Source of the DNA: a virus
Lineage: Duplodnaviria; Heunggongvirae; Uroviricota; Caudoviricetes
DNA length: 21,842 nucleotides
Direction: 5' to 3' (one strand)
IMG/VR virus record: IMGVR_UViG_2531839433_000003
Position numbers and translations under genes: made by a program. A model generated the notes under the pieces. It was not told the origin of the DNA. It did no database searches and worked only from the letters and a program-made list of their open reading frames with translations. Positions 1 through 20,908 of the stretch are shown here, piece by piece (the stretch's first letter is position 1; every line of letters starts with the position of its first letter).

Positions 1-1053
1 TTACGGGGTAATGCCAACCGCTGCCGCCACTTTGTCGCCACTTGGCAATGTTGCCAGAGGATTGAAACGGAGCGCCGTTTCCAGATGATCCGGTGCCAGA
101 TGTGCGTAACGCATAGTCATTTTTATATCGTGGTGTCCGAGAATTTTTTGTAAGGCCAGGATGTTTCCACCCGACATCATGAAGTGCGCCGCAAACGTAT
201 GGCGCAGAACGTGTGTCAGTTGACCGCGAGGGAGCACGATAGACGTTTTTTCCATCACGGATAAAAATTGAAAATAGCAGTCTGTGAAGAAATTGAACCC
301 ATCAAGCGCCATGATCTCTTCGTAAAGCTCTTTACTGATAGGGATGCTTCTGTTTTTCTTCCCCTTCGTTCTTACAAAGGTAATTCGGTATTTGGTCACT
401 TGCGAGCGGGTAAGATTTATTGCTTCTCGCCAGCGTGCGTCTGTGCTTAGGCATATCTTGACTACCAGTGCCAGAATTGGGTCCTGACGTTTGCAATCAG
501 CCAGCAGTTCAACAATCTGCTCATGGGTAAGCCATGCCATTTCTTTTTCTGCGATGGTGAATTTTCGCATGTTCTCCAGTGGGTTCGGATACGACCATTC
601 GCCCAGGCGGGATAGTTCGCTAAAAACACTACTTAGATAGCTTTGCTCCAGGTTAATGGTGACCGGGCTTGCTCCTTTCTTCCATTTCTCGCTGAAGTAG
701 ATCTCTCCTGTCAGGCGTTTATCTCTATAGTGGGCAAACATTTTAGAGGTGAGATCGGTTGCAAGGGGATTGCCCAGAGCGTCAACCATCAACAGCAGTT
801 TGTCATAGACATGCTGCCCAGCTGTCAGAGATTTACCATGTAGTTTGAACCATAGCTCAACCACGTCTTTCAATGTCCGACGATCCACTGGTTCGCCCAG
901 CCAGGGCTTTGCTTCGGTTTCTTCCATCGTGTGACGCTCAAAAGCCAGAGCTTCGCCTTTAGTGGCGAATTGTTTACGCACACGACGCCCACTACGTCCG
1001 GCGGGGTAACATTCGCAAAGCCATTTCCCTGTGGTGAGTTTTCGTACTGCCAT
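1..1053 (-). CDS. int: Tyrosine integrase, P2/186 family; the last 13 codons are encoded by the att core plus host flank
   Basis: 350 aa ORF whose translation resembles P2 Int along its length, including the C-terminal catalytic region (LTHVLRHTFAAHF...GHHDIKMTMRYAHL). Sits at the prophage left end, transcribed toward the att repeat. Confidence 0.88.
   Translation of the reverse strand: MAVRKLTTGKWLCECYPAGRSGRRVRKQFATKGEALAFERHTMEETEAKPWLGEPVDRRTLKDVVELWFKLHGKSLTAGQHVYDKLLLMVDALGNPLATDLTSKMFAHYRDKRLTGEIYFSEKWKKGASPVTINLEQSYLSSVFSELSRLGEWSYPNPLENMRKFTIAEKEMAWLTHEQIVELLADCKRQDPILALVVKICLSTDARWREAINLTRSQVTKYRITFVRTKGKKNRSIPISKELYEEIMALDGFNFFTDCYFQFLSVMEKTSIVLPRGQLTHVLRHTFAAHFMMSGGNILALQKILGHHDIKMTMRYAHLAPDHLETALRFNPLATLPSGDKVAAAVGITP
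19..40. repeat. attL core: 22-bp direct repeat cgctgccgccactttgtcgcca, matching 18988..19009 with one mismatch
   Basis: Read directly: identical at 21 of 22 positions to 18988..19009. One copy lies inside the int 3' end, the other immediately after the ogr stop, which is where a P2-type att lies. Confidence 0.7.
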
Positions 1054-1078: not shown

Positions 1079-1141
1079 AAATTTAACTGTGCTTATATAC
1101 AGTGGTCAATGTATGATTTCATTAAAACAGACAAGGGTGTG

Positions 1142-1777
1142 CTATAAATCTGCTCTTAAATTATTTTCAGGGTCATTAGCGATATTTCTTTGTGAATTAT
1201 TAACTAAATCAGAAAATGTATTATCTCGGTCGTTAGATTTAGTTAATCCAATATTCGTATTTGTCGCTTCTAATTCAAGTATTGATGACTCCATCTTCTG
1301 AATAATGGCTACACTATCTATAAAATAGTCGAAAATATATTGAAATGATACTGTGGGGCTTTTCCCATGAGCGAAATCATTTCTGGCTCTATTTAAAGAT
1401 TTCAACGAATCACGTAATTTATTTGAATGCGGATCGTTCTTGATTTTGTCCTTAAAGTTGTTACACCAGTTATTATCAAATGAACCAAGTGCCTTACAAA
1501 TATTATCGTAATTAGGGTTCATTGAACTATTTCTGAATTTTTCATCAATGAATCTTTGTATTTGTTCACTATGTTGATCATATTTATGATCGCTAATGAT
1601 TGTTTTGAAAGAATATTCAATGGTTCCGCAGGTTCTAATAATTGAATATCGTGTTAAATATTTAACAATAGTTGTAGTGGGGCCAGAAGATTCTATCATC
1701 TTCTCTATACTCTCAAGTTCCTTTAAACAATCTATAATGCTATTTTTAGCATTATTATTAACGATATTGAATGCCAT
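1142..1777 (-). CDS. HEPN-motif protein (R-x4-6-H), predicted RNase effector; resembles the MAE_28990/MAE_18760-type HEPN family
   Basis: Motif LNRARNDFAHGKS (RNxxxHG) in the C-terminal third of an AT-rich ORF. GGAG lies 7 nt upstream of the ATG at 1777; the ORF track's longer start at 1810 has no ribosome-binding site. Overlaps the DUF262 gene by 20 nt. Confidence 0.55.
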   Translation of the reverse strand: MAFNIVNNNAKNSIIDCLKELESIEKMIESSGPTTTIVKYLTRYSIIRTCGTIEYSFKTIISDHKYDQHSEQIQRFIDEKFRNSSMNPNYDNICKALGSFDNNWCNNFKDKIKNDPHSNKLRDSLKSLNRARNDFAHGKSPTVSFQYIFDYFIDSVAIIQKMESSILELEATNTNIGLTKSNDRDNTFSDLVNNSQRNIANDPENNLRADL

Positions 1778-2912
1778 AAAGAAACTCCAGTGCCATTGAA
1801 ATTCTTCCATGTATATTTTCTATCTGCATTGTACCAGATGTGATATGTGACCGAAATGTCTGATTTTGTAGTAACTCATTTCTTTTATGCTCTAGATCGT
1901 TAGTGTTTATATCTTCACCTGAATTTAATGCAATGGATGTTGCGACATATAATGCATCAAAAATGGTTGGATAAAAACGACGACGTATACGTGATGGATC
2001 TGATTGGATTATATTAAAGAATGCATCTGGTCCTATATTATCATGAATAAAATTAATGGTGTTTTCAAAATCGGTTTTAATGGTGTCGATCATGTCAGAG
2101 GTGTTATTTGCTTTATCACCCATATATTCATTAAGGAGTTTTTTTAGCGAAATATTTGCTGGTTCATGACTCTTTATTTTCTGCGTGTTAAGAGCCAAGC
2201 CTCTTAGAATGAATTCCATATCTCTCATTCGTGCATCTGGTTTATTAGAACCGAATAAAGTACGCCATTTGATATTATTGTTTAGTTCTATCAATAGAGT
2301 ATTTAATTTCCCTTGATATACGCAATTACGTATTTCTTGAGCCATTAGTGAACGTCCACCAGTATTTATACGCTCAAAAATTTGATATAGGCTAGTATCA
2401 TCGTTCGACGGAACGGTTTGCTCAAAGATTATAGCGTGTATAGTTGTTGAGCGAATTTTCTTTTTTTCTGAAACTGTAAGTTCATTAAAGGCCTTACCAC
2501 GCCATTTTGCATTAATTTTTCTACTATCGGAAAGTTTAAAGACTCTACTATCTTTTGACCATATACCTGTCACATAATCATAGACAGTCATGATTCTCTG
2601 AAAACCATCTATAATGAGTTTGTTTTCGTCAGACGTATTTGCTAAAAAAATACTCGGAACAGGAAGACCTAGCAATAATGAGTCTATAAATCTACTGGCT
2701 TCGACTTTATCCCAAACATAATTTCTTTGAAGTTCTGGTTTCTGAAGTTCGCCCTCATCATACATTGTAATAAGTTCTCTAAAAGATAAATCGGCCCCCC
2801 ATGAGTTTATATTGTATAAATCATCATTTGAGTAAGAATCGTTCTGTTCTTCTTCGATTATCTCTATTGTGTCCTCAAGAGAATTATTATTGATATAATT
2901 GCTGTCAGTCAT
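1758..2912 (-). CDS. DUF262 protein (ParB-like / GmrS N-terminal NTP-binding domain), no fused HNH/DUF1524 domain
   Basis: Motifs PELQRNYVW and IIDGFQR (the DGQQR-type motif) near the N-terminus. Start chosen at MTDSNY (ATG 2910..2912), which has GAGG 5 nt upstream and sits 1 nt after the CI-like stop codon. Confidence 0.72.
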   Translation of the reverse strand: MTDSNYINNNSLEDTIEIIEEEQNDSYSNDDLYNINSWGADLSFRELITMYDEGELQKPELQRNYVWDKVEASRFIDSLLLGLPVPSIFLANTSDENKLIIDGFQRIMTVYDYVTGIWSKDSRVFKLSDSRKINAKWRGKAFNELTVSEKKKIRSTTIHAIIFEQTVPSNDDTSLYQIFERINTGGRSLMAQEIRNCVYQGKLNTLLIELNNNIKWRTLFGSNKPDARMRDMEFILRGLALNTQKIKSHEPANISLKKLLNEYMGDKANNTSDMIDTIKTDFENTINFIHDNIGPDAFFNIIQSDPSRIRRRFYPTIFDALYVATSIALNSGEDINTNDLEHKRNELLQNQTFRSHITSGTMQIENIHGRISMALEFLYGIQYR

Positions 2913-2913
2913 T

Positions 2914-3864
2914 TTAACCTCTAACATTATTAATGGATAATACGATCTTTGCAATAAATTCGATTTCGTTTATTGAACATTCAAAAACTATGTTTTTATT
3001 TTTTACTTGAATTTTTTCATTAGGTAATTTAGTGATTGTTCGAATACTGATATCTCCATCAATACCAACGATCCACTCGCCATCTATAATATTATTGAAT
3101 CTTTTTTCACAAATGTAAAAGTTATTTACATTTTCAATCAAACAAGGAAATATCGTATTTTCAGGTAACAGATTTTTATCAAATATCGAGTTCCCGCTCT
3201 CAATTAATTTTGCATTATTTAGAGTAAACTTTGGTATATTTATACAGTTTAAACTGCTATTTTTTTCTATTTTATCTCCTTTCCCAAAGGCTAACCACGT
3301 GATGGATACTCCTGTTTCGATAGCACACTGAATTACCCAATCAGCAGGAAAAGTATCACGCATATATCGTGTGGCTAACGTGCTTTTTGAAATACCAAGG
3401 TGATCAGCTAAGGCTTGACGTGTCTTGTAACCGTAAGCTTCAACAATTCGTTCTATTACTGCTTTTCCTCCATGAGTGAAATTCATGTGGATTTCATTAT
3501 CGAACAGAGTGGGGGAAGAGTGAACTTTGTCGCAAAGTCCATCTTCGGTTTGTTTTTCAGCATGTTGTTCTAGTGAAGAAGATGACATTCTTTCTTTAAC
3601 ACCTGAACCAAATGCTAGCCATTCAATTGATGCGCCTGTCTCCATCGAGCAGATAACAACCCAATCTGCTGGAAATGTATCGCGGGCATATCTGTTAGCC
3701 ATCGTGCTTTGGGAAATACCTAGGTGATTACAGAATGCCTGGCGTGACTTGAAGCCATAAGCCATGAGGATCCGCTCAATTACTTTCTGACCACCGCGAT
3801 TCTGTATGACAGCGGCTTTCATATCGTCATTCATATGGCGAAATGTGAATTTTTGAGTTGACAT
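2914..3864 (-). CDS. CI-like repressor with two tandem Phage_CI_repr-type HTH domains and an AT-rich C-terminal domain
   Basis: Two internally repeated segments (around residues 14-88 and 120-195) share the pattern ERI..AYG.K.RQA...HLGIS.ST.A.RY.RDTFPADWV..C..ETG.S..WLAFG.G, which resembles the phage 186 CI N-terminal domain. Divergent from the Apl-like gene, in the cI position. Confidence 0.65.
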   Translation of the reverse strand: MSTQKFTFRHMNDDMKAAVIQNRGGQKVIERILMAYGFKSRQAFCNHLGISQSTMANRYARDTFPADWVVICSMETGASIEWLAFGSGVKERMSSSSLEQHAEKQTEDGLCDKVHSSPTLFDNEIHMNFTHGGKAVIERIVEAYGYKTRQALADHLGISKSTLATRYMRDTFPADWVIQCAIETGVSITWLAFGKGDKIEKNSSLNCINIPKFTLNNAKLIESGNSIFDKNLLPENTIFPCLIENVNNFYICEKRFNNIIDGEWIVGIDGDISIRTITKLPNEKIQVKNKNIVFECSINEIEFIAKIVLSINNVRG

Positions 3865-3886
3865 ATTCTTTATGCGAACCTATTCT
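3858..3886 (+). promoter_or_regulatory. Candidate rightward early promoter: TTGACA, 17-nt spacer, TATTCT
   Basis: Perfect -35 hexamer at 3858..3863 and a -10-like TATTCT at 3881..3886 upstream of the Apl-like gene; overlaps the CI-like start codon. No transcript data. Confidence 0.35.
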
Positions 3887-3888
3887 CC

Positions 3889-3918
3889 GTTTTGTGATGT
3901 TGTTATCACGATTAAAAC
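3889..3918. promoter_or_regulatory. Nested palindrome GTTTT-GTGAT-N6-ATCAC-gatt-AAAAC; candidate repressor/Apl operator
   Basis: Inverted repeats read directly in the cI/apl divergent intergenic region. Confidence 0.3.
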
Positions 3919-3952: not shown

Positions 3953-4174
3953 ATGACCCCTAACATTTCAATAACTCTGAATACACCACACGTCACAATC
4001 GAGCGTTATAGCGAACTTACTGGTCTTTCAATCGACACAATCAACGATATGCTGGCAGATGGTCGCATCCCTCGGCATCGTCTTCGTAAAGACAAAAAAA
4101 GAGAAAAGGTAATGATCAACCTTGCTGCTCTTACCGTTGATGCACTTACTGATTGCAATGTTGTATTCAACTAG
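3953..4174 (+). CDS. apl: Apl/Cox-like small HTH excisionase/regulator
   Basis: 73 aa, first rightward gene opposite the CI-like gene, GGAG upstream, HTH-like segment [24 protein letters not shown]. Position matches 186 apl / P2 cox. Confidence 0.55.
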
Positions 4175-4206
4175 TTCCATTTTGGGATATATCAGGGGTG
4201 TCGACT

Positions 4207-4716
4207 ATGTTTGATTACCAAGTTTCCAAACATCCACATTTTGATGAAGCCTGTCGTGCATTCGCGTTGCGCCACAACCTGGTGCAACTGGCAGAACGTG
4301 CAGGCATGAATGTGCAGATTCTGCGGAACAAGCTGAACCCAGCTCAACCTCATTTATTAACCGCACCAGACATCTGGCTGCTTACCGATCTGACTGAGGA
4401 TTCAACGCTGGTAGATGGTTTTCTGGCACAGATTCATTGTCTGCCATGTGTACCAATTAATGAGGTGGCAAAAGAGAAACTGCCACATTACGTCATGAGT
4501 GCAACCGCAGAGATCGGGCGTGTTGCGGCAGGTGCGGTATCTGGCGATGTAAAAACCAGTGCAGGTCGTCGTGATGCTATCAGCAGCATTAACTCTGTAA
4601 CACGACTGATGGCGCTGGCTGCTGTTTCATTGCAGGCCCGTTTACAGGCTAATCCTGCGATGGCGAGCGCAGTTGATACCGTGACTGGCCTCGGTGCTTC
4701 ATTCGGTTTGCTGTGA
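4207..4716 (+). CDS. cII: CII-like transcriptional activator (phage 186 CII type)
   Basis: 169 aa, the same length as 186 CII. N-terminus [20 protein letters not shown] and internal [28 protein letters not shown] match my recollection of 186 CII. Confidence 0.65.
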
Positions 4717-5530: not shown

Positions 5531-5757
5531 TGGCTGATGCAATGGATCTCGTACAGCAGCGAGTTGAAGAAGAACGCCAACGTCATATCCGTGCTGCCCG
5601 TGCCAAAACGCCGGGCGTGTCCCGCGTGCTTTGCGTTGAGTGTGAAGCGCCAATTCCGCCAGCACGCCGCTGTGCCATTCCGGGGGTGCAGCTTTGCATT
5701 ACCTGTCAGGAAATCGCAGAGCTGAAAGGCAAACATTACAACGGAGGTGCTGTATGA
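5530..5757 (+). CDS. TraR/DksA-family C4 zinc-finger protein
   Basis: CxxC-N17-CxxC (CVEC...CITC) in a 75 aa protein; ATGA overlap with the following dam gene. Confidence 0.7.
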   Translation: MADAMDLVQQRVEEERQRHIRAARAKTPGVSRVLCVECEAPIPPARRCAIPGVQLCITCQEIAELKGKHYNGGAV

Positions 5758-6611
5758 GCACCATCCTGAAATGGGCGGGAAATAAAACCGCCATTATGTC
5801 CGAACTGAAAAAACACCTTCCTGCTGGCCCGCGACTGGTTGAACCTTTCGCGGGTTCCTGTGCTGTGATGATGGAGACGGATTACCCCAGCTATCTGGTT
5901 GCGGATATTAATCCTGATTTAATCAACCTCTATAAAAAGGTTGCTGCTGATTGTGAATCGTTTATATCTCGCGCCAGAGTTTTATTTGAGATCGCAAACA
6001 GGGAGGTGGCTTATTACAACATAAGGCAGGAGTTTAATTACTCCACTGAAATTACTGATTTCATGAAAGCGGTATATTTCCTGTATCTCAATCGTCACGG
6101 TTACCGTGGTTTATGTCGCTATAACAAGAGCGGGCATTTCAACATTCCCTACGGTAATTATAAAAATCCGTATTTCCCTGAAAAAGAAATTCGCGCATTT
6201 GCAGAAAAGGCCCAGCGAGCAACGTTTATCTGCGCCAGCTTTGATGAAACGCTGGCGATGTTGAAGGCGGGGGATGTGGTGTATTGCGATCCGCCGTATG
6301 ACGGTAAGTTTTCCGGCTATCACACTGATGGTTTCACTGAAGATGACCAGTATCACCTGGCATCTGTTCTTGAACATCGGTCATCAGAAGGACATCCGGT
6401 CATTGTTTCTAACAGTGACACATCCCTGATCCGTTCGCTGTATCGCAATTTTACTCACCACTACATCAAGGCAAAACGCAGCATCGGTGTGGCAGCTGGC
6501 GAGGGTAAATCAGCAACAGAAATCATTGCTGTTTCCGGGCCGCGCTGCTGGGTGGGATTTGATTATTCGCGTGGCGTGGATAGTTCTGCCGTGTACGGAG
6601 TACGTGCATGA
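5754..6611 (+). CDS. dam: DNA adenine methyltransferase, Dam-like (GATC N6-adenine)
   Basis: N-terminal LKWAGNK SAM-binding motif and DPPY catalytic motif (DNA 6288..6299); collinear resemblance to E. coli Dam. Translationally coupled on both sides. Confidence 0.85.
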
Positions 6612-9022
6612 GCCATGCCGATATGAACAACTGCTGCGGCTTTAACGAGGCTGCCGCATCGTTCTCATGGAACAGCCCGAAAAAGGCCATTAACCCTTAT
6701 CTGGACCCGGCGGAAGTTGCGCCGGTTTCTGCGCTTTCAAACCTGATCACTCTGTACGCTGCCGATAACGAGCAGGAACAGCTGCGCCGCGAGGCACTGA
6801 GTGATCAGGTCTGGGAGCGTTATTTCTTTAATGAATCCCGTGATCCTGTCCAGCGCGAAATGGAGCAGGATAAGCTCATTAGTCGGGCAAAGCTGGCGCA
6901 TGAGCAGCAGCGTTTTAATCCAGATATGGTCATTCTGGCGGACGTCAATGCCCAGCCTTCCCATATCAGCAAGCCGCTGATGCAACGTATTGAATACTTC
7001 AGCAGCCTTGGCAGGCCAAAGGCTTATTCCCGCTATTTGCGTGAGACGATTAAGCCATGTCTGGAACGGCTGGAGCATGTACGCGACAGTCAGCTATCCA
7101 CTTCTTTTCGCTTTATGGCAAGCCATGAAGGGCTGGACGGCCTGCTGATTCTGCCTGAAATGAGTCAGGATCAGGTGAAACGCCTGTCCACCCTTGTTGC
7201 TGCGCATATGAGCATGTGCCTTGATGCAGCTTGTGGCGATTTGTATGCCACCGATGACGTTAAGCCTGAAGAAATCCGCAAGACATGGGAAAAGGTGACA
7301 GCAGAAACCCTGCGACTGGATGTCATACCGCCTGCGTTTGAGCAACTCCGCCGGAAAAGAAACCGCCGTAAACCCGTGCCTTATGAACTCATTCCGGGTT
7401 CGCTGGCGCGTATGTTGTGCGCCGACTGGTGGTACCGGAAATTATGGAAGATGCGTTGCGAATGGCGGGAAGAGCAGTTGCGTGCTGTTTGCCTGGTCAG
7501 CAAAAAAGCATCTCCCTATGTCAGCTATGAAGCCGTGATGCATAAACGTGAGCAGCGCCGTAAGTCGCTGGAGTTTTTCCGTTCTCATGAACTGGTGAAC
7601 GAAGACGGCGACACGCTGGACATGGAGGATGTGGTAAACGCCAGCAGCAGCAACCCTGCGCATCGCCGCAATGAGATGATGGCCTGTGTTAAAGGTCTGG
7701 AGCTTATCGCGGAAATGCGTGGTGACTGCGCCGTTTTCTACACCATCACCTGTCCGTCACGTTTCCATTCCACGCTAAATAACGGCAGGCCCAACCCGAC
7801 CTGGACAAATACGACGGTAAGACAAAGCAGTGATTATCTGGTCGGCATGTTTGCTGCATTTCGTAAGGCGATGCACAAAGCCGGATTGCGCTGGTATGGC
7901 GTGCGGGTGGCTGAGCCGCATCATGACGGTACAGTTCACTGGCACCTGTTGTGTTTTATGCGCAAAAAAGATCGCCGCGCCATTACTGCTTTGTTGCGTA
8001 AGTTTGCCATTCGTGAAGACCGCGAGGAGCTGGGTAATAACACGGGACCACGCTTTAAGTCTGAGCTGATAAACCCGCGCAAAGGTACGCCAACAAGCTA
8101 CATCGCGAAATACATCAGTAAGAACATTGACGGGCGTGGTCTGGCTGGCGAGATCAGCAAGGAAACGGGTAAATCCCTGCGTGATAACGCTGAATACGTT
8201 AATGCCTGGGCGTCTCTGCATCGTGTTCAGCAATTCCGCTTCTTTGGCATTCCGGGGCGTCAGGCTTACCGTGAACTGCGATTGCTGGCTGGTCAGGCGG
8301 CAAGGCAACAGGGGGACAAAAAAGCAGGTGCGCCGGTACTGGATAACCCGCGCCTTGATGCAATCCTGGCTGCTGCTGATGCTGGTTGTTTTGCCACCTA
8401 CATCATGAAGCAGGGCGGCGTACTGGTTCCCCGCAAATATCACCTCATCAGAACTGCTTATGAAATCAACGAAGAACCGACCGCATATGGCGATCACGGT
8501 ATTCGTATTTATGGCATCTGGTCACCCATTGCAGAGGGCAAGATCTGCACTCATGCGGTGAAGTGGAAAATGGTTCGTAAGGCCGTTGACGTTCAGGAGG
8601 CGGCAGCCGACCAGGGCGCTTGCGCCCCTTGGACTCGTGGCAATAACTGTCCCCTTGCTGAAAATTTGAGCCAACAAGGGAACGACAAATCAGCTGATGG
8701 GGATACCAGAACGGACATTACCCGCATGGATGACAAGGAGTTGCACGATTACCTGCACAGTATGAGCAAAAAAGAGCGCCGGGAACTGGCTGCAAGGTTA
8801 CGCCAGGTGAAACCGAAACGGCGTAAAGACTACAAACAGCGAATTACAAACCATCAGCGACAGCAGCTCGTCTATGAACTGAAGTCCAGAGGATTTGATG
8901 GCAGCGAGAAAGAAGTCGATTTACTCCTTCGCGGCGGCAGTATTCCGTCAGGAGCAGGCCTGCGTATCTTCTATCGGAACCAGCGTTTGCAGGAAGATGA
9001 TAAGTGGCGGGAGCTGTATTAA
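6608..9022 (+). CDS. Rolling-circle replication initiator, P2 gpA / 186 RepA family
   Basis: 804 aa with the metal-binding HWHLL motif (7936..7950) and active-site tyrosine motif YIAKYISK (8099..8122). Start overlaps the dam stop. Confidence 0.85.
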
Positions 9023-9116: not shown

Positions 9117-9132
9117 CTGTAAATATAAACAG
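9117..9132. promoter_or_regulatory. LexA box, CTGT-N8-ACAG (ctgtaaatataaacag)
   Basis: Matches the SOS-box core; lies about 45 nt upstream of the 9175 ORF, inside an AT-rich promoter-like region. Confidence 0.5.
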
Positions 9133-9174: not shown

Positions 9175-9363
9175 ATGCAGGACTATTTTTTGGAGTCTTT
9201 GAAGCTCCAGCGCATTGATTTTTTTCTTAAGCTTGTAGCGGCTAGTGAGTGTAGTGATGAAGAGAAGGGGCTGGCTCTGCAGTGGGTTTCTGAGTTGACT
9301 GATGAACTCATGGCAAAAATCAGAACTCACGAATACAACCGCTCAATGGACGTCATCAGTTGA
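9175..9363 (+). CDS. Small protein, 62 aa, first gene of a putative SOS-controlled Tum-like module
   Basis: Strong AGGAGG ribosome-binding site 7 nt upstream of the ATG, downstream of the LexA box. Confidence 0.5.
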   Translation: MQDYFLESLKLQRIDFFLKLVAASECSDEEKGLALQWVSELTDELMAKIRTHEYNRSMDVIS

Positions 9364-9373
9364 GGTGACTTTT

Positions 9374-9607
9374 ATGCGCATTGAAATAATGATCGATAAA
9401 GAGCAGAAGATTAGCCAGTCTACCCTGGACGCCCTTGAATCAGAGCTTTACCGCAATCTGCGCCCCCTGTATCCCAAAACGGTAATTCGCATCCGCAAAG
9501 GTAGCTCTAACGGTGTGGAACTGACCGGACTGCAACTGGACGAAGAAAGAAAACAAGTGATGAAAATTATGCAGAAGGTGTGGGAAGACGACAGCTGGCT
9601 GCATTAA
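9374..9607 (+). CDS. DinI-family protein (186 Tum-like C-terminal domain)
   Basis: 77 aa beginning MRIEIMIDKEQ and ending KVWEDDSWLH, which parallels E. coli DinI (MRIEVTIAK...ETWESADDWF). GAGGTGA ribosome-binding site. Confidence 0.65.
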   Translation: MRIEIMIDKEQKISQSTLDALESELYRNLRPLYPKTVIRIRKGSSNGVELTGLQLDEERKQVMKIMQKVWEDDSWLH

Positions 9608-11845: not shown

Positions 11846-13417
11846 TTACTGAGAGCTCAGATCAACTTTCCAGGGCAACAGATCGCGTACCCGGTTTGCC
11901 GGCCAGTCCTGGATATGTTCAATGACGTAGCGCAGCCACTTTTCTGGCTCCACATTGTTCAGACGGCATGTGCCGATCAGCGAGTACAACACCGCCGCAT
12001 GTTCACCACCGCTGTCGGAACCCGCGAACATCCACTTTTTCCGGCCTACGGCCACTCCCCGTAAGGCGTTCTCTGCGATGTTGTTGTCGATTTCCACCCA
12101 GCCATTACTGCAGTACACGTTCAGTGCATCCCACTGTTTCAGCAGGTATGCGAACGCTTTTGCCGTATCTGAGTGACGCGACAGTGTTTTCATCTGTTGC
12201 TGTATCCAGTCATACAGTGACTGCATCAGTGGCGCGGCTCTGGTTTTTCTTGCCGCCAGACGCTGTTCTGCTGAACAGCCCCGGACCTCTGCCTCGATGG
12301 CATACAGTTCACCGATACGCTGCAGGGCTTCCGTGGTGATGTCGGTGGGCGCTCTTGCATGCACATCGTGGATTTTTCTCCGGGCATGAGCCATACACGC
12401 GGCTTCCGTTATTCTGCCGGATTCGTATAACGCCCGGTAACCACCGTAAGCATCGGCCTGAAGCACACCGCTGTAACCGGCCAGGTGATTTTGTGGATGG
12501 ATACCTTTCCGGTCCGGACTGTACGCGAACCAGACCGCCGGGGGCATCTGTGAACCGGCGTTACGGTCATCACGGACGTAGACCCACAGCCGGGCTGTCC
12601 GGGTTTTACCGCTGCCCGGCTCCTGGACCGGGACGGGGATATCATCAGCATGGACTTTACCGGGCATCAGCACATACTGGCGCAGGACGTCATACAGCGG
12701 CTCCAGTAGTTCAGCAACGGCACCTGTCCAGCGCCCCAGTGTGGCACGGCTCAGCTCCACACCCTGACGGCGGTATATCTCTGACTGGCGGTATAACGGC
12801 AGATGGTCTGCATATTTTCCGGTGACGACATGGGCCAGGAGCCCCGCTCCGGCATAACTGCGTGCAATGGGTTTTGAAGGTACTGGTGCCTGCACGATAT
12901 GGTCGCACCGACAACAGGCCAGTTTCGGACGTTGTGTTTCGATAACCTTAAAGGCGCTGCTGATAAGCTCCAGTTGCTCTGACACATCACATCCCAGAGA
13001 ACTGAGTTCACCACCACAGGCAGGACAGCATTCCTCTTCCGGCCGGATAACCCGGGTTTCACGGGGAAGTGAGGCCGGTAACGGTTTACGGGCTGAAGAC
13101 TGGCGCAGGGCGGATGGCAGTACCGGGTCATATTGCTCACCCAGCGTTTCCGCCATTTCTTCCTGAAGTGCGCTGATTCGCTCCTGTGCTTCCTGTATCT
13201 GCCGTTCGGTTTTTGCACGAAGTTTTTCTGAGCTTTTACCGAACTGCATACGTTGCAGTTTCGCAACCAGCGCCTTCAGCCGGTTGATTTCGGAAGCATA
13301 AGCCGCCACCCGCTGTGAGAGCAGGCGGTTGTATTCAGCCATCTGGCGTATGGTGTCCTGTTGCGTCTGCAACAGTGCCCGCAGGCGGGCGTTCTCATGA
13401 GCAAGTGAGGTGTCCAT
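11846..13417 (-). CDS. tnpC: IS66-family transposase (TnpC)
   Basis: 523 aa with an N-terminal coiled-coil/leucine-zipper region and a Cys-rich segment, as in IS66-family TnpC. Confidence 0.85.
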
Positions 13418-13436
13418 ATCCTCACTTTACAACGGG

Positions 13437-13784
13437 TTATATGCGGATTCCAGCGCGTTCCGTTCGTTTCGGGTGCTTCCAGTTGATACCTTCAAGAAGC
13501 ATGGATAACTGAGCCGGAGTAAGGTGCACCTTGCCGTCACGGGTGACTGGCCAGACGAAGCGGCCCCGCTCCAGGCGTTTGGTGAAGAGGCACAGTCCGT
13601 CACTGTCAGCCCACAACACTTTTATCTGGTCACCCCGGCGTCCGCGGAAGATGAACAGGTGTCCGGAGAACGGGTCATCCTTCAGGACGTTCTGAACTTT
13701 TGATGCCAGGCCGTTAAAGCCATTTCGCATATCGGTGATACCTGCAACCAGCCAGATACGCGAACCTGCAGGGAGAGATATCAT
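13437..13784 (-). CDS. tnpB: IS66-family accessory protein TnpB (Orf2)
   Basis: 115 aa, MISLPAGSRIWLVAGITDMR..., as in IS66 Orf2; ATGA overlap with the upstream ORF. Confidence 0.8.
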   Translation of the reverse strand: MISLPAGSRIWLVAGITDMRNGFNGLASKVQNVLKDDPFSGHLFIFRGRRGDQIKVLWADSDGLCLFTKRLERGRFVWPVTRDGKVHLTPAQLSMLLEGINWKHPKRTERAGIRI

Positions 13785-14461
13785 CAGTGGCTGCTCCCTT
13801 TTATTTCGCGGATAAGTGTCTGTAATAACGCCGGCGTCAGTTTACCTTTAAGCCTGAGAGTTCCGGCCGGCAGAACCAGCTCACAACACAGACTGTCGGA
13901 CGGTGTATTTATCTGCTCTGGTTCCTGTGCGGGGGCCGGGATTTTATTATCCGGCTCCGGCGTTAACGTCACGGGAAGCAGTGCCGGCATATTTTTTCCG
14001 GAAGGCAGCAGGCCACCTTTCCGGTATTGATGGCGCCAGTTGAAGAGCAGGTTATCGTTGATTCCGTTTTCCCGGGCGATCTGCGCCACACAGGCTCCGG
14101 GCTGCAGTGACTGCTCCACTAAGGCGATTTTAAACTCATAAGGGAAGTTGGGCCGCCGGGGACGTTTTTTTACCACGGGGGCTTCGGATATAACGGTGCT
14201 TTCAGGACGTACGACTGGTACCGTGGAAAATTGTCCGTAAAGGCAGGCATCAAGTTCCTGCTCCGACATGCCTGCGGGCAAAGGCCACGAAAGGCCAGCT
14301 CTCCGAAAGCGCACGAACATACTACAAACTGTTGATTTTGGTACACCCAGGCGACGCCCGGCCACAACCCGGGGTAAATGTTCTTCAAAGTGAAGACGTA
14401 AAGCTTCAGTGATCCAGGTCCGGTGTTTCATACGATAGTGTCCATTAAAAATGATGGACAT
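13784..14461 (-). CDS. tnpA: IS66-family accessory protein TnpA (Orf1); start uncertain
   Basis: First ORF inside the IS, leftward, coupled to tnpB. The true start may be the internal Met (MKHRTW...). Confidence 0.6.
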   Translation of the reverse strand: MSIIFNGHYRMKHRTWITEALRLHFEEHLPRVVAGRRLGVPKSTVCSMFVRFRRAGLSWPLPAGMSEQELDACLYGQFSTVPVVRPESTVISEAPVVKKRPRRPNFPYEFKIALVEQSLQPGACVAQIARENGINDNLLFNWRHQYRKGGLLPSGKNMPALLPVTLTPEPDNKIPAPAQEPEQINTPSDSLCCELVLPAGTLRLKGKLTPALLQTLIREIKGSSH

Positions 14462-18573: not shown

Positions 18574-18678
18574 GCGGAATGGACCATTACGACTCTGACG
18601 CATACCGTCAGCCCCGATAACGGTTTTACAACCAGTCTGGAGCTTGAAGTGAGGATTGATGATTTCGAAATGGAATGA
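18574..18678 (+). pseudogene. Possible C-terminal remnant of tail gene D fused out of frame to the capsid fragment
   Basis: The +1 frame reads ...TITTLTHTVSPDNGFTTSLELEVRIDDFEME then stop, about 90 nt upstream of ogr, where D lies in P2. Assignment is by position and frame only. Confidence 0.3.
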
Positions 18679-18768
18679 TTCTTCGCAATGGAGAACTTTT
18701 AAGTTTGCAAAATGGAATAATGCGGTATCATTATTGTGAATTTAGCAAAAATGGGGAGAACTCGAAAA

Positions 18769-18987
18769 ATGATGATTTGCCCACTGTGTGGAAGTGCCGC
18801 CCATACTCGCAGCAGTTTTCAGGTATCTTCATTGACCAAAGAACGTTACAACCAGTGCCAGAACATTAACTGCAGCCATACTTTTGTTACCCATGAAACT
18901 TTTGTTCGTTCGATTGCAACGCCAAAAGAGTCAAATCCGGTTCAGCCGCATCCAATGAAATCAGGACAGGTGGCGCTCTCTCTTTGA
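18769..18987 (+). CDS. ogr: Ogr-type zinc-finger late transcription activator
   Basis: 72 aa, MMICPLCGSAAHTRSS...KERYNQCQNINCSHTF, parallel to P2 Ogr (CPLC...KERYHQCQNVNCSATF); last prophage gene before attR. Confidence 0.85.
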   Translation: MMICPLCGSAAHTRSSFQVSSLTKERYNQCQNINCSHTFVTHETFVRSIATPKESNPVQPHPMKSGQVALSL

Positions 18988-19222: not shown

Positions 19223-20908
19223 TTATCCTAATCCTGGCCATACCATGACGATGATTGTCCCTGCCAGCGTCAGCAGGACGTTGGCGATTGCATAGGTGCC
19301 CGCATAGCCCAGCGCCGGGATGTTACTGCGAGCTGTATCACTGATGATCTCCATTGCCGGCGCGCAGGTACGTGCGCCCATCATTGCGCCGAACAACAGC
19401 GCGCGGTTCATTCGCAATACATAAGCACCGAACAAGAAACAGATAACCACGGGCACCAGACTGACAATCAATCCGGCAATCAACATCTGACCGCCAATCG
19501 CGCCCAGGCCGTTATTAATACCGCTACCGGCGCTCAGACCAACGCCTGCCATAAACACCATCAAGCCGAACTCTTTCACCATGCTTAATGCACCCTGCGG
19601 AATGTAACCGAAGGTCGGGTGGTTAGCACGCATAAAGCCCAGCATAATTCCGGCGAATAACAACCCGGCAGCGTTCCCCATGCCGAAACTGAATGTGCTG
19701 AACTGGAAGGTGATCATCCCGATCATCAGCCCAATAACAAAGAAGGCGCAGAATGCCAGCAGGTCAGTGACCTGGCTGTGAATCGAGATAAAGCCGATGC
19801 GATCGGCGATGGTTTTTACGCGGCGGGCATCGCCGCTGACTTGTAAAACGTCACCTTTGTTAAGCACGACGTTGTCATCTATCGGCATCTCAATCTGGCT
19901 ACGAATGACGCGGTTAAGGAAGCAACCGTGATCGGTCAACTTCAGTTGTGCGAGACGTTTACCTACAGCGTTATGGTTTTTAACGACCACTTCTTCAGTG
20001 ACGATACGCATGTCGAGAAGGTCACGATCGAAAACTTCTTTACCGTTACGGAAGCTGGGATCGAGTCGGGCATGGGCGTCGGGATAGCCTACCAACGCTA
20101 TTTCATCGCCCATTTGTAGCACGGCATCACCGTCTGGATTTGCCAGAATCCCGTTACGTCGAATACGTTCAATGTAGCAGCCGGTTTGTCGATAAATACC
20201 CAGTTCACGCAGATTTTTGCCGTCGGTCCAGGCCACCAGTTCCGGGCCGACGCGATAGGCGCGGATCACCGGTAAATAAACCTTACGGTTGGCATCAGTG
20301 TCCAGGCCACGTTCGCGGGCGATTTGCTGGGCGCTGGTCTGTAAGTCCTGATGCTGCAATTTCGGCAAGTAACGCGCACCAACAATCAAACTCACCAGAC
20401 CGATTAAATAGGTTAAGGCATACCCGAGGCTCAGATTATCCAGTGCCAGTGAGAGCTGCCTGCTTTCCATGCCGGAATGACGCAGTGTATCGCCAGCACC
20501 GACCAGAACCGGTGTCGACGTCATAGAGCCTGCTAACATACCGGCCGTCAGGCCAATATCCCAGCCAAACAGCTTACCTAACCCTAAGGCGATCACCAGC
20601 GCACTGCCAACCATCACCAGTGCTAACATTAGGTAATTTTTCCCATCGCGAAAAAAAATGGAAAAAAAGTTCGGTCCGGCTTCGACCCCGACGCAGAAAA
20701 TAAACAGCATAAAGCCAAGATTAAGCGCATCGGTGTTAATGCTGAAATGTTGTTGGCCTAATAACAGCGATACGACTAAAACGCCAATGGAATTACCCAG
20801 TTGGATCGAACCAAGTCGTAACTTTCCGAGACATAGCCCAAGCGCGAGGACCACAAATAATAACAGAATGTAATTCCCATTTAACAATTCGGCGACGTTT
20901 ATATTCAC
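19223..20908 (-). CDS. ybjL: Putative transporter YbjL (AAE family membrane protein with two internal soluble domains)
   Basis: 561 aa polytopic membrane protein recognised as E. coli YbjL; adjacent to ybjM and grxA as in E. coli. Confidence 0.88.

Follow-up and report, generated by a model that had tools for sequence, protein, structure and literature searches.

A 186-type CI repressor with two helix-turn-helix domains per chain

Two complete heads in one CI protein

We analysed a stretch of 21,842 nucleotides (IMG/VR virus record IMGVR_UViG_2531839433_000003), which we will call the window. It holds the left portion of a 186-like prophage (Peduoviridae), at a site flanked by rcdA and ybjL in E. 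coli. Its cI gene (2914-3864, minus strand) is a single unbroken open reading frame (ORF), and the 316-amino-acid product is a 186 CI-type repressor with two complete helix-turn-helix (HTH) domains per chain and a distinct CI C-terminal domain (CTD). We will call the HTH domains heads. We propose that this protein is probably a working immunity repressor of the 186 kind, with both of its tethered heads binding DNA from a 186-like oligomer.

The protein begins with an N-terminal extension (amino acids 1-20, MSTQKFTFRH...; 3805-3864), which is followed by HTH copy 1 (amino acids 21-88; 3601-3804), an acidic and polar linker of ~40 amino acids that is predicted to be disordered (amino acids 89-128; 3481-3600), HTH copy 2 (amino acids 129-197; 3274-3480), and the AT-rich CTD, which is the predicted oligomerisation domain (amino acids 210-316; 2917-3237). 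All of these are encoded on the minus strand. The recognition helices are SQSTMANRYARD in copy 1 and SKSTLATRYMRD in copy 2. In 10 identical E. coli genomes, the product is labelled "phage repressor protein CI."

Profile searches, self-alignment, and structure prediction all find both heads. In Pfam, the protein has two stretches of PF07022 (Phage_CI_repr; E = 8.5e-59, far over the cut-off of 22 bits), one in copy 1 and the best at amino acids 135-197 in copy 2, and a match to PF16452 (Phage_CI_C) at amino acids 210-308 (E = 1e-23; 83.9 bits, with a cut-off of 27 bits). There is no Pfam match to Peptidase_S24 (PF00717), and LexA CTDs are only distantly similar in fold; nor is there a model in NCBIfam or a match in PADLOC. 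When we compared amino acids 1-105 to amino acids 106-316 with BLASTP, residues 24-96 aligned to residues 132-204 without gaps (48/73 identical or 66%, E = 6e-36). We also built an AlphaFold2 (AF2) model of the monomer from an alignment of 42 homologues. The model contains two confident five-helix heads (pLDDT of ~80-91 for copy 1 and ~87-94 for copy 2), a disordered linker (pLDDT under 50 at amino acids 92-126), and a beta-rich CTD (pLDDT of ~95). The modelled CTD superposes on the CTD of 186 CI (2fkd_A) with a TM score of 0.92 (rmsd 1.5 Å across 110 residues).

These results bear out the initial annotation of this DNA, which had proposed, from the letters alone, two consecutive CI-type domains followed by a distinct AT-rich C-terminal domain (the GC content of the CTD is ~0.275). 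It had also stated that 186 CI has a single such domain, and indeed the structure of 186 CI (PDB 2fjr) matches only amino acids 135-308 of the window's CI, which are copy 2 and the CTD.

The initial annotation described a tandem duplication that is visible in the DNA at 3300-3520 and 3620-3840. These ranges overlap the true copies but are shifted by ~20-45 nucleotides. In register, with an offset of 324 nucleotides, the cores of the two copies (3601-3795 and 3277-3471) are 66.7% identical at the DNA level, and no other in-frame offset gives more than 35%. Identity is 74%, 85%, and 41% at codon positions 1, 2, and 3, respectively, and the proportion of synonymous differences (pS) is 0.78. Given the divergence at third positions and the saturation of synonymous sites, the event is old: there are two similar heads, but they are not freshly duplicated. 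With a seed of 7, an ungapped search for DNA repeats within cI gave nothing but short chance repeats and missed the copies, because the exact seeds are too short; they show up only when compared in register or as protein.

Both heads are conserved

As judged by Nei-Gojobori comparisons of six two-headed cI genes, both heads are under strong purifying selection. The ratio of nonsynonymous to synonymous changes (dN/dS) is ~0.01-0.07 for copy 1, ~0.08-0.16 for copy 2, and ~0.5-0.9 for the linker. For instance, copy 1 of the window and of Klebsiella phage 4LV2017 differ with a pN (the nonsynonymous counterpart of pS) of 0.01 and a pS of 0.65. The identity of homologues to the window's CI is 78-97% in copy 1 (in the main group), 61-86% in copy 2, 5-50% in the linker, and 23-40% in the CTD. 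Both recognition helices are nearly invariant in the 42 aligned homologues: each head retains S-x-S-T-x-A-x-R-Y-x-R-D-x-F-P-x-D-W in the helix and the turn after it, so the second copy has kept its HTH-forming residues. The dN/dS values and the conservation of the helix imply that copy 1 is the most constrained part of CI and is not a decaying remnant.

This bears on the idea that recombination of two prophage cI genes left behind an extra head that has no function. The gene is a mosaic, with a stepwise drop in GC content (~0.48 in copy 1, ~0.40 in copy 2, and ~0.275 in the CTD); seven E. coli genomes match cI over the N-terminal 190 codons alone; and the window's prophage is degraded. However, copy 1 has a dN/dS of ~0.01 with saturated synonymous sites, the architecture is retained across genera and in viable phages, and it has several independent origins (see below). 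We consider a neutral chimera to be close to refuted.

Alternatively, copy 1 might not bind DNA. It could be a regulatory module, for example one that caps and inhibits copy 2 or that senses a Tum-like antirepressor or acts as its decoy, so that copy 2 and the CTD alone repress. Copy 2 and the CTD do correspond to a full-size 186-type CI (190 amino acids from M127 to the end, with 2fjr aligning to residues 135-308), and the long flexible tether would suit a decoy. The window also contains a LexA box and a Tum-like/DinI-like gene pair, which makes an antirepressor route likely. On the other hand, copy 1 is the most conserved part of CI, including every position of the recognition helix; copy-1-type heads serve as the only head in some single-head repressors; and operator-like half-sites co-occur with the copy-1 type. 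A head that does not bind DNA seems unlikely to us.

M127 (3486-3484) might also be an internal start codon, which would give a 190-amino-acid single-head CI beside the 316-amino-acid form, and the mix of the two could tune the switch. This in-frame ATG is exactly where copy 2 begins, and a promoter-like sequence (TTCACT-17-GATAAT) ends ~10 nucleotides upstream of it, at 3496. But there is no Shine-Dalgarno sequence before the ATG, and the region has 6 promoter-like matches, compared to 5.1 in shuffles. Furthermore, the methionine is not conserved in homologues, which rules out an internal start as a feature of the family. We think it very improbable that the window's gene uses one.

Across the CI family, the heads are conserved and the oligomerisation domain is hypervariable (23-40% identity), which is the reverse of the usual lambdoid pattern. 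A hypervariable CTD might limit the formation of mixed oligomers by the repressors of co-resident prophages, or it might evade antirepressors.

Distribution of two-headed repressors

We searched for relatives of the window's CI in a collection of 5.8 billion proteins. Among the 120 best matches, 49 have two heads (the window's protein is a 50th). There are at least 45 distinct full-length clusters of two-headed proteins at 90% identity, and these are from Enterobacterales of the genera Escherichia, Salmonella, Klebsiella, Citrobacter, Enterobacter, Kosakonia, and Edwardsiella. Across the subfamily, the heads are joined by a disordered linker of 20-45 amino acids, and an oligomerising CTD follows.

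Two-headed CI proteins are also encoded by ~30 deposited phage genomes, PSP3 among them. Full-length matches in one piece come from Klebsiella phage 4LV2017, from the Kp48xx series, and from phages derived from ST11/ST437 prophages, among others. Among 5,426 complete genomes of E. coli, the exact cI gene of the window is present in 10, and the DNA of the copy 1 region has a match in 318 (~6%). We checked one typical match, and it was a two-headed gene in the same context. In Dryocola sp. BD586 (locus L005, 3995-4690), a two-headed cI is shortened within the CTD (229-231 amino acids), and this is probably a decaying copy.

An exhaustive phmmer search of 1.84 billion proteins, with amino acids 1-90 of the window's CI as the query, gave only 178 representatives, and among the top 150, about 25 contain two stretches. 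(Two representatives with 6-7 "stretches," P0194 and P0257, were false positives: they are low-complexity repeat proteins.) We then compared heads in an identity matrix. Within the window's own lineage, the two heads of a protein are 54-68% identical to each other. In a Vibrio-like lineage (P0184, P0249, and P0227), the heads are 51-67% identical within each protein and at most 36% identical to those of other lineages. In another lineage (P0242 and P0247), the corresponding values are 69-71% and at most 37%. In these last two lineages, the heads of a protein are far closer to each other than to any head elsewhere, and with the window's own lineage, we conclude that the head was doubled independently at least three times among PF07022 proteins. 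This recurrence argues that a second head confers a selective advantage. P0242 and P0247 carry their two PF07022-type heads on a Peptidase_S24 (LexA-like) C-terminal domain, so doubled heads are also found on another kind of repressor chassis. Three other representatives (P0226, P0236, and P0244) have 3-5 consecutive HTH modules ending in a shared ...ICREF.VS.EWL..G.G motif; all three are arrays of Xre-like heads, and P0226 and P0236 are 484-521 amino acids long.

We did not find any description of a two-headed 186-type CI in the literature, and annotation pipelines label these repressors as plain "CI." This subfamily is found widely, is under strong selection, has evolved repeatedly, and seems not to have been described before.

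Origin of the two heads

Copy 1 domains are 70% identical to each other and 58% identical to copy 2 from their own or other proteins. Copy 2 domains average 74% identity, and reach 94%, to the heads of single-head CI proteins. In particular, copy 2 from the window is 78% identical to the N-terminal domains (NTDs) of single-head CIs of 198 amino acids, and copy 1 is 58% identical to them. Copy 1 is 60-72% identical to a separate class of single-head CIs of ~203 amino acids, which have an SQST helix and an N-terminal extension of similar length. Single-head repressors of ~203-209 amino acids with a SQSTMANRYARD-type helix and such an extension are found in Pantoea, Mixta, Erwinia, Citrobacter, and Escherichia. 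(Single-head repressors from Xenorhabdus seemed to match by their N-terminal extension, but they are of the SKST type, so we rejected them as copy-1-type.) Also, the end of the linker (consensus K-x-P-I-E-x-x-I-N-x-N-Q-G-G-K) together with copy 2 and the CTD resembles a complete 198-amino-acid CI.

The simplest reading of these similarities is that a copy-1-type head and the linker were joined ahead of a complete copy-2-type cI, or that the reverse occurred by deletion, with frequent recombination afterwards. We rejected the alternative that the copy 1 domains form one clade that derives from a single ancient duplication, since this clade was recovered in 0 of 200 neighbor-joining bootstraps. 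The monophyly of copy 1 is broken by a second group of two-headed proteins, which lack the N-terminal extension (P0028, P0030, P0034, P0035, P0040, P0042, P0043, and P0046), and by recombination with single-head genes.

Recombination seems to have reshaped the 3' part of the gene as well. The seven E. coli genomes that match only the first 190 codons of cI do so at ~85% identity, and their CTD and cargo differ. In the window, an AT-rich block (GC content of ~0.28-0.35) runs from 1100 to 3300, that is, from the HEPN gene (see below) through the part of cI that encodes the CTD. This suggests that when cargo genes are swapped, the CTD of the repressor goes with them, and that the breakpoint is close to the junction of copy 2 and the CTD (~3292-3314).

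Candidate operators and a proposed mechanism

The initial annotation had singled out 3858-3918 as the region to examine for operators, and this region does contain the predicted pR promoter and the best operator candidates. The candidate pR (3858-3886, plus strand) comprises a -35 element (TTGACA, 3858-3863), a spacer of 17 nucleotides, and a -10 element (TATTCT, 3881-3886), and it scores 10/12 in a consensus scan. The -35 element overlaps the ATG of cI, which is on the opposite strand, and the location is that of pR in 186. Both hexamers are conserved over loci of differing head or immunity type. Six two-headed loci share 89% identity in the switch region, even though their proteins are only 52-61% identical overall. 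The regulatory DNA extends into the coding sequence: in the first 20 codons of cI (3805-3864), which overlap the -35 element and the regulatory DNA upstream of it, pS is just 0-0.25 (compared to 0.6-0.9 in the adjoining copy 1) and dN/dS is ~1 or above. This combination suggests that the constraint is on the DNA rather than on the peptide. Within this stretch, the block ATGGCGAAATGT is unchanged in six loci.

Our best candidate for an operator is the palindrome TGTGAT-N6-ATCACG (3893-3910), which lies over the predicted start of pR and whose arms are conserved in six two-headed loci. It is the only match in the window to GTGAT-N6-ATCAC with up to one mismatch. As there is just one good site, partners like the FL and FR sites of 186 cannot be located by means of the palindrome. 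Single-head relatives with 198-amino-acid CIs, which share the apl gene and the promoter, have TCCCCAAATGGGA in the palindrome's place (-44) and TCCCAATCAGGGA at +38.

We also identified candidate half-sites of the form [AT]TC[AG]CA on the cI-sense (minus) strand. Read on the plus strand, these are TGTGAA (3844-3849), TGCGAA (3873-3878), and TGTGAT (3893-3898), with spacings of 29 and 20 bp. They bracket pR, with one upstream of the -35 element, one in the spacer, and one at +1. Measured from the ATG of cI, each of the six main-group loci has half-sites at -34 and -14, and four of these loci, of which the window is one, have another at +15. The sequences of the half-sites vary between loci and yet remain within [AT]TC[AG]CA. 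The density of this motif per 110 bp is 2.67 in two-headed loci of group A, compared to 0.12 expected and 0.24 in SKST-type (K-type) single-head loci.

Farther from pR, TTCCATTTTGGGA (4175-4187) is immediately past the stop codon of the apl-like gene, which is the position of FR in 186. The related motif C[AG]AAATGG[AG]A occurs three times in the 21.8 kb (0.31 expected): once after the apl stop codon and twice upstream of the ogr/B-like late activator. Upstream of ogr/B, at 18666-18740, it alternates with [AT]TC[AG]CA[AT] sites: we see CGAAATGGAA (18666-75), TTCGCAA (18682-88), CAAAATGGAA (18708-17), a -10-like TATCAT (18726-31), and TTGTGAA (18734-40). The record for 186 has two CI operators at pB, which is equivalent to this late-activator promoter. 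Other searches gave no candidates. The A-type operator of 186 (ATTCAC-N5-GTGAAT) has no match in the window with fewer than 2 mismatches and is not enriched there, TCCC-N5-GGGA is not enriched in the window either, and the switch region of PSP3 has no obvious repeated operators by eye or with a repeat finder. Overall, the operator map is only suggestive.

From this map and the likeness to 186, we infer the following mechanism. Through its CTD, the window's CI most likely forms dimers and higher oligomers in the manner of 186 CI, and such an oligomer would display double the number of heads. Each of the two heads would contact DNA, and the half-sites within their reach would be distributed over two to three helical turns around pR (upstream of the -35 element, in the spacer, and at +1) and also around the late-activator promoter. 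By contrast, 186 CI uses tight inverted repeats of 17 bp. Repression of pR would keep the prophage silent, and a single leftward transcript would express cI, the defence cargo, and int. The initial annotation's suggestion that two HTH units per monomer would alter the geometry of the operators is plausible but weakly evidenced.

Several observations weigh against this proposal. The candidate operator map is weak: it includes only one clear palindrome, and 13 of 300 block shuffles of the window (~4%) also produce a cluster of half-sites on the same strand. The motif C[AG]AAATGG[AG]A was defined post hoc. The element at the FR position is also found in loci that have an SQST head alone and hence lack a copy-2-type head (L080, L081, and L085), so it may be an element of the pE promoter instead of a CI site. 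As for the protein, the CTD is only ~30% identical to that of 186 CI, and its oligomeric state is predicted by likeness. The AF2 model has a pTM of just 0.42, which implies that its domains have no fixed mutual arrangement. The conserved recognition helix could be a protein-binding surface instead. Finally, the window's prophage is defective (see below), so this repressor may no longer govern a viable phage.

The two heads might also have a division of labour or confer dual immunity, by keeping the differing specificities of two parental immunity types; we regard this as doubtful. Copy 1 (SQST) would read [AT]TCACA-type half-sites at its own pR, and copy 2 (SKST) would read sites like TCCC-N5-GGGA or CAAAATGGAA. 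Copy 2 might target flanking and late-promoter sites of the phage itself, giving a bipartite operator, or it might target the pR of heteroimmune single-head relatives, which would widen superinfection immunity. In keeping with this idea, copy 2 resembles the NTDs of the 198-amino-acid CIs (78% identity, up to 94% in other members), and copy 1 resembles the SQST class of ~203 amino acids. The phages with 198-amino-acid CIs share apl and the pR hexamers and yet carry TCCCCAAATGGGA in place of GTGAT-N6-ATCAC, and only loci with a copy-1-type head have the [AT]TCACA sites at -34 and +15. The 21.8 kb contain the 10-mer CAAAATGGAA only upstream of ogr and at the FR-equivalent site. Also, 186 CI itself is annotated with distinct sets of operators at pR and at FL, FR, and pB. 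But the recognition helices SQSTMANRYARD and SKSTLATRYMRD differ at few positions, other single-head phages of the SKST type lack TCCC-N5-GGGA sites, the presence of the FR-type element in the three SQST-only loci again suggests a promoter element, and the motifs were picked after inspection.

A broader form of this idea, which we hold tentatively, is that the specificities of the heads have diverged, so that each subunit of a 186-type wheel would read a bipartite code that links pR, the flanking sites, and the promoter of the late activator. If so, a two-headed repressor might silence heteroimmune relatives that have a copy-2-type repressor alone. Such an expansion of the immunity range could explain why heads were doubled independently at least three times.

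Comparison to known repressors

Returning to our proposal of a 186-like oligomer with two DNA-binding heads per chain, the closest well-studied relative is coliphage 186 CI (PDB 2fjr and 2fkd). The two proteins share the PF07022 head, the PF16452 CTD, and the fold of the CTD. The phages share the layout of the switch, with cI facing apl-cII and int downstream, and the window has a candidate for a LexA-controlled Tum-like module rather than a self-cleaving S24 CTD. They differ in that 186 CI has one head per chain, while the window's CI has two, joined by the disordered linker of ~40 amino acids; only the window's CI has a 20-amino-acid N-terminal extension whose DNA overlaps pR. The window has dispersed half-site candidates and one GTGAT-N6-ATCAC palindrome in lieu of A-type operators (ATTCAC-N5-GTGAAT with up to one mismatch). 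And although 186 CI forms a 14-mer wheel, the window's CTD, at ~30% identity, is known here from its sequence and a monomer model. 186 CI binds three operators that are two turns apart at pR as well as single 17-bp sites, FL and FR, that are ~300 bp away, and it wraps and loops the DNA (PMC3675496).

Higher-order wrapping and looping of DNA have been worked out for few repressors; 186 CI is one of them, with a wheel of seven dimers that contacts operators two turns apart. A natural and widespread version with doubled, tethered heads would be a direct test of the wheel model. It raises the questions of how many heads engage DNA, whether dispersed single half-sites can replace inverted repeats, and whether pR, the flanking sites, and pB can all be held simultaneously.

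The CI from Salmonella phage PSP3 (286 amino acids; locus L089, 2465-3325) and its counterparts from SEN1, SW9, SI22, and Escherichia phage Midge also have two PF07022 domains and PF16452, within a 186-like switch. The two-headed architecture is therefore found in viable and long-known phages. PSP3 CI represents a separate lineage: its own heads are 44-47% identical to each other and 33-49% identical to those of the window, and the partner gene at the apl position is different. A comparative paper from 2011 put the extra length of the CIs from PSP3 and phiECO3 down to a "longer C-terminal domain" (PMC3448106).

The 198-amino-acid single-head CIs, from Klebsiella, Raoultella, and Citrobacter (L009, L010, L018, and L073), have a nearly identical apl and the same pR hexamers, besides the 78% identity of their NTD to copy 2. 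Their N-terminus, MSTSKYPNEIKINPNQGGK, is equivalent to residues 1-5 of the two-headed consensus joined to the last part of its linker. Copy 1 and most of the linker are missing from these CIs, and instead of the palindrome, their loci have TCCCCAAATGGGA at pR +1 and TCCCAATCAGGGA at +38. With two-headed and single-head repressors on nearly the same apl/pR backbone, these loci provide a natural experiment on the evolution of immunity specificity in P2/186-like phages.

Repressors of the lambda CI/LexA type have an S24 peptidase CTD, which the window's CI lacks (no match to PF00717). Other proteins have two lambda-repressor-like HTH modules per chain with a flexible tether: the POU domain, engineered single-chain 434 or Cro repressors, and Wmk from Wolbachia prophages. 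Tethering a pair of HTH domains raises their local concentration and allows flexible spacing of half-sites. These proteins are unrelated to the window's CI in sequence and none is built on a 186-type oligomerising CTD, so this is only an analogy.

Genomic context

The window's cI is at the position of cI in 186: an apl-like gene, cII, fil, dam, and repA are on its right side, and int is on its left. It heads the leftward lysogenic operon, and we saw the same context in every related locus that we examined. The apl/cox-like gene (3953-4174, plus strand; 73 amino acids) is the lytic operon's first gene and was identified by its position; its match to an excisionase family is weak and below the cut-off. 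It is followed by cII (4207-4716, plus strand; PF06892, E = 1.3e-41); by fil, DUF5347, DUF2732, and TraR/DksA-like genes; and then by dam (~5754-6611) and repA (6608-9022). The integrase gene int (1-1053, minus strand), which we identified as an annotated ORF, is the last gene of the lysogenic operon.

Two genes lie between int and cI, both on the minus strand. One encodes a RiboL-PSP HEPN protein (1142-1777/1810; Pfam), which matches PD-T4-2_B in PADLOC (E = 1.6e-8). The other encodes a GmrSD_N/DUF262 protein (1758-2912; Pfam), which matches PD-T4-2_A (E = 1.8e-55) and NsnA (E = 1.2e-65). According to these matches and the gene order, the pair is PD-T4-2-like defence cargo that is co-transcribed with cI. 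The initial annotation had suggested that CI could act both as an immunity repressor and as a regulator of the DUF262-HEPN genes. The location of cI, facing apl-cII, fits the first role, but special control of the cargo is unsupported: DUF262 begins 1 nucleotide beyond the stop codon of cI, in the same operon, and other two-headed cI genes precede unrelated cargo (an AAA_15/AAA_21 ATPase with DUF4276, or various unknowns). As every related prophage that we examined has different cargo, the interval between cI and int behaves as a hotspot for defence or moron genes. Two-headed repressors are encoded directly upstream of this hotspot and probably drive its expression in lysogens.

The prophage has lost much of its late region. 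The portal gene is split by ISCro1, an IS66-family element (11846-14461), and the capsid gene N is truncated and fused to a fragment of gene D; the region from N to D is deleted, and all of the tail and lysis genes are lost. The ogr/B-like late activator is retained (18769-18987, with its ATG at 18769). Past the prophage remnant is the host's ybjL (19223-20908).

A perfect LexA box, CTGTAAATATAAACAG (9117-9132), is upstream of an ORF of 62 amino acids (9175-9363) and a DinI-like ORF (9374-9607). Together these look like the tum (antirepressor) module of 186, split in two. CTGT-N8-ACAG occurs three times in the window (~0.26 expected), and a second perfect match to it, CTGTGCTTATATACAG (1087-1102), lies between the stop codon of the HEPN gene and the start of int. 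This could be an SOS-controlled element ahead of int, or it could be a chance match.

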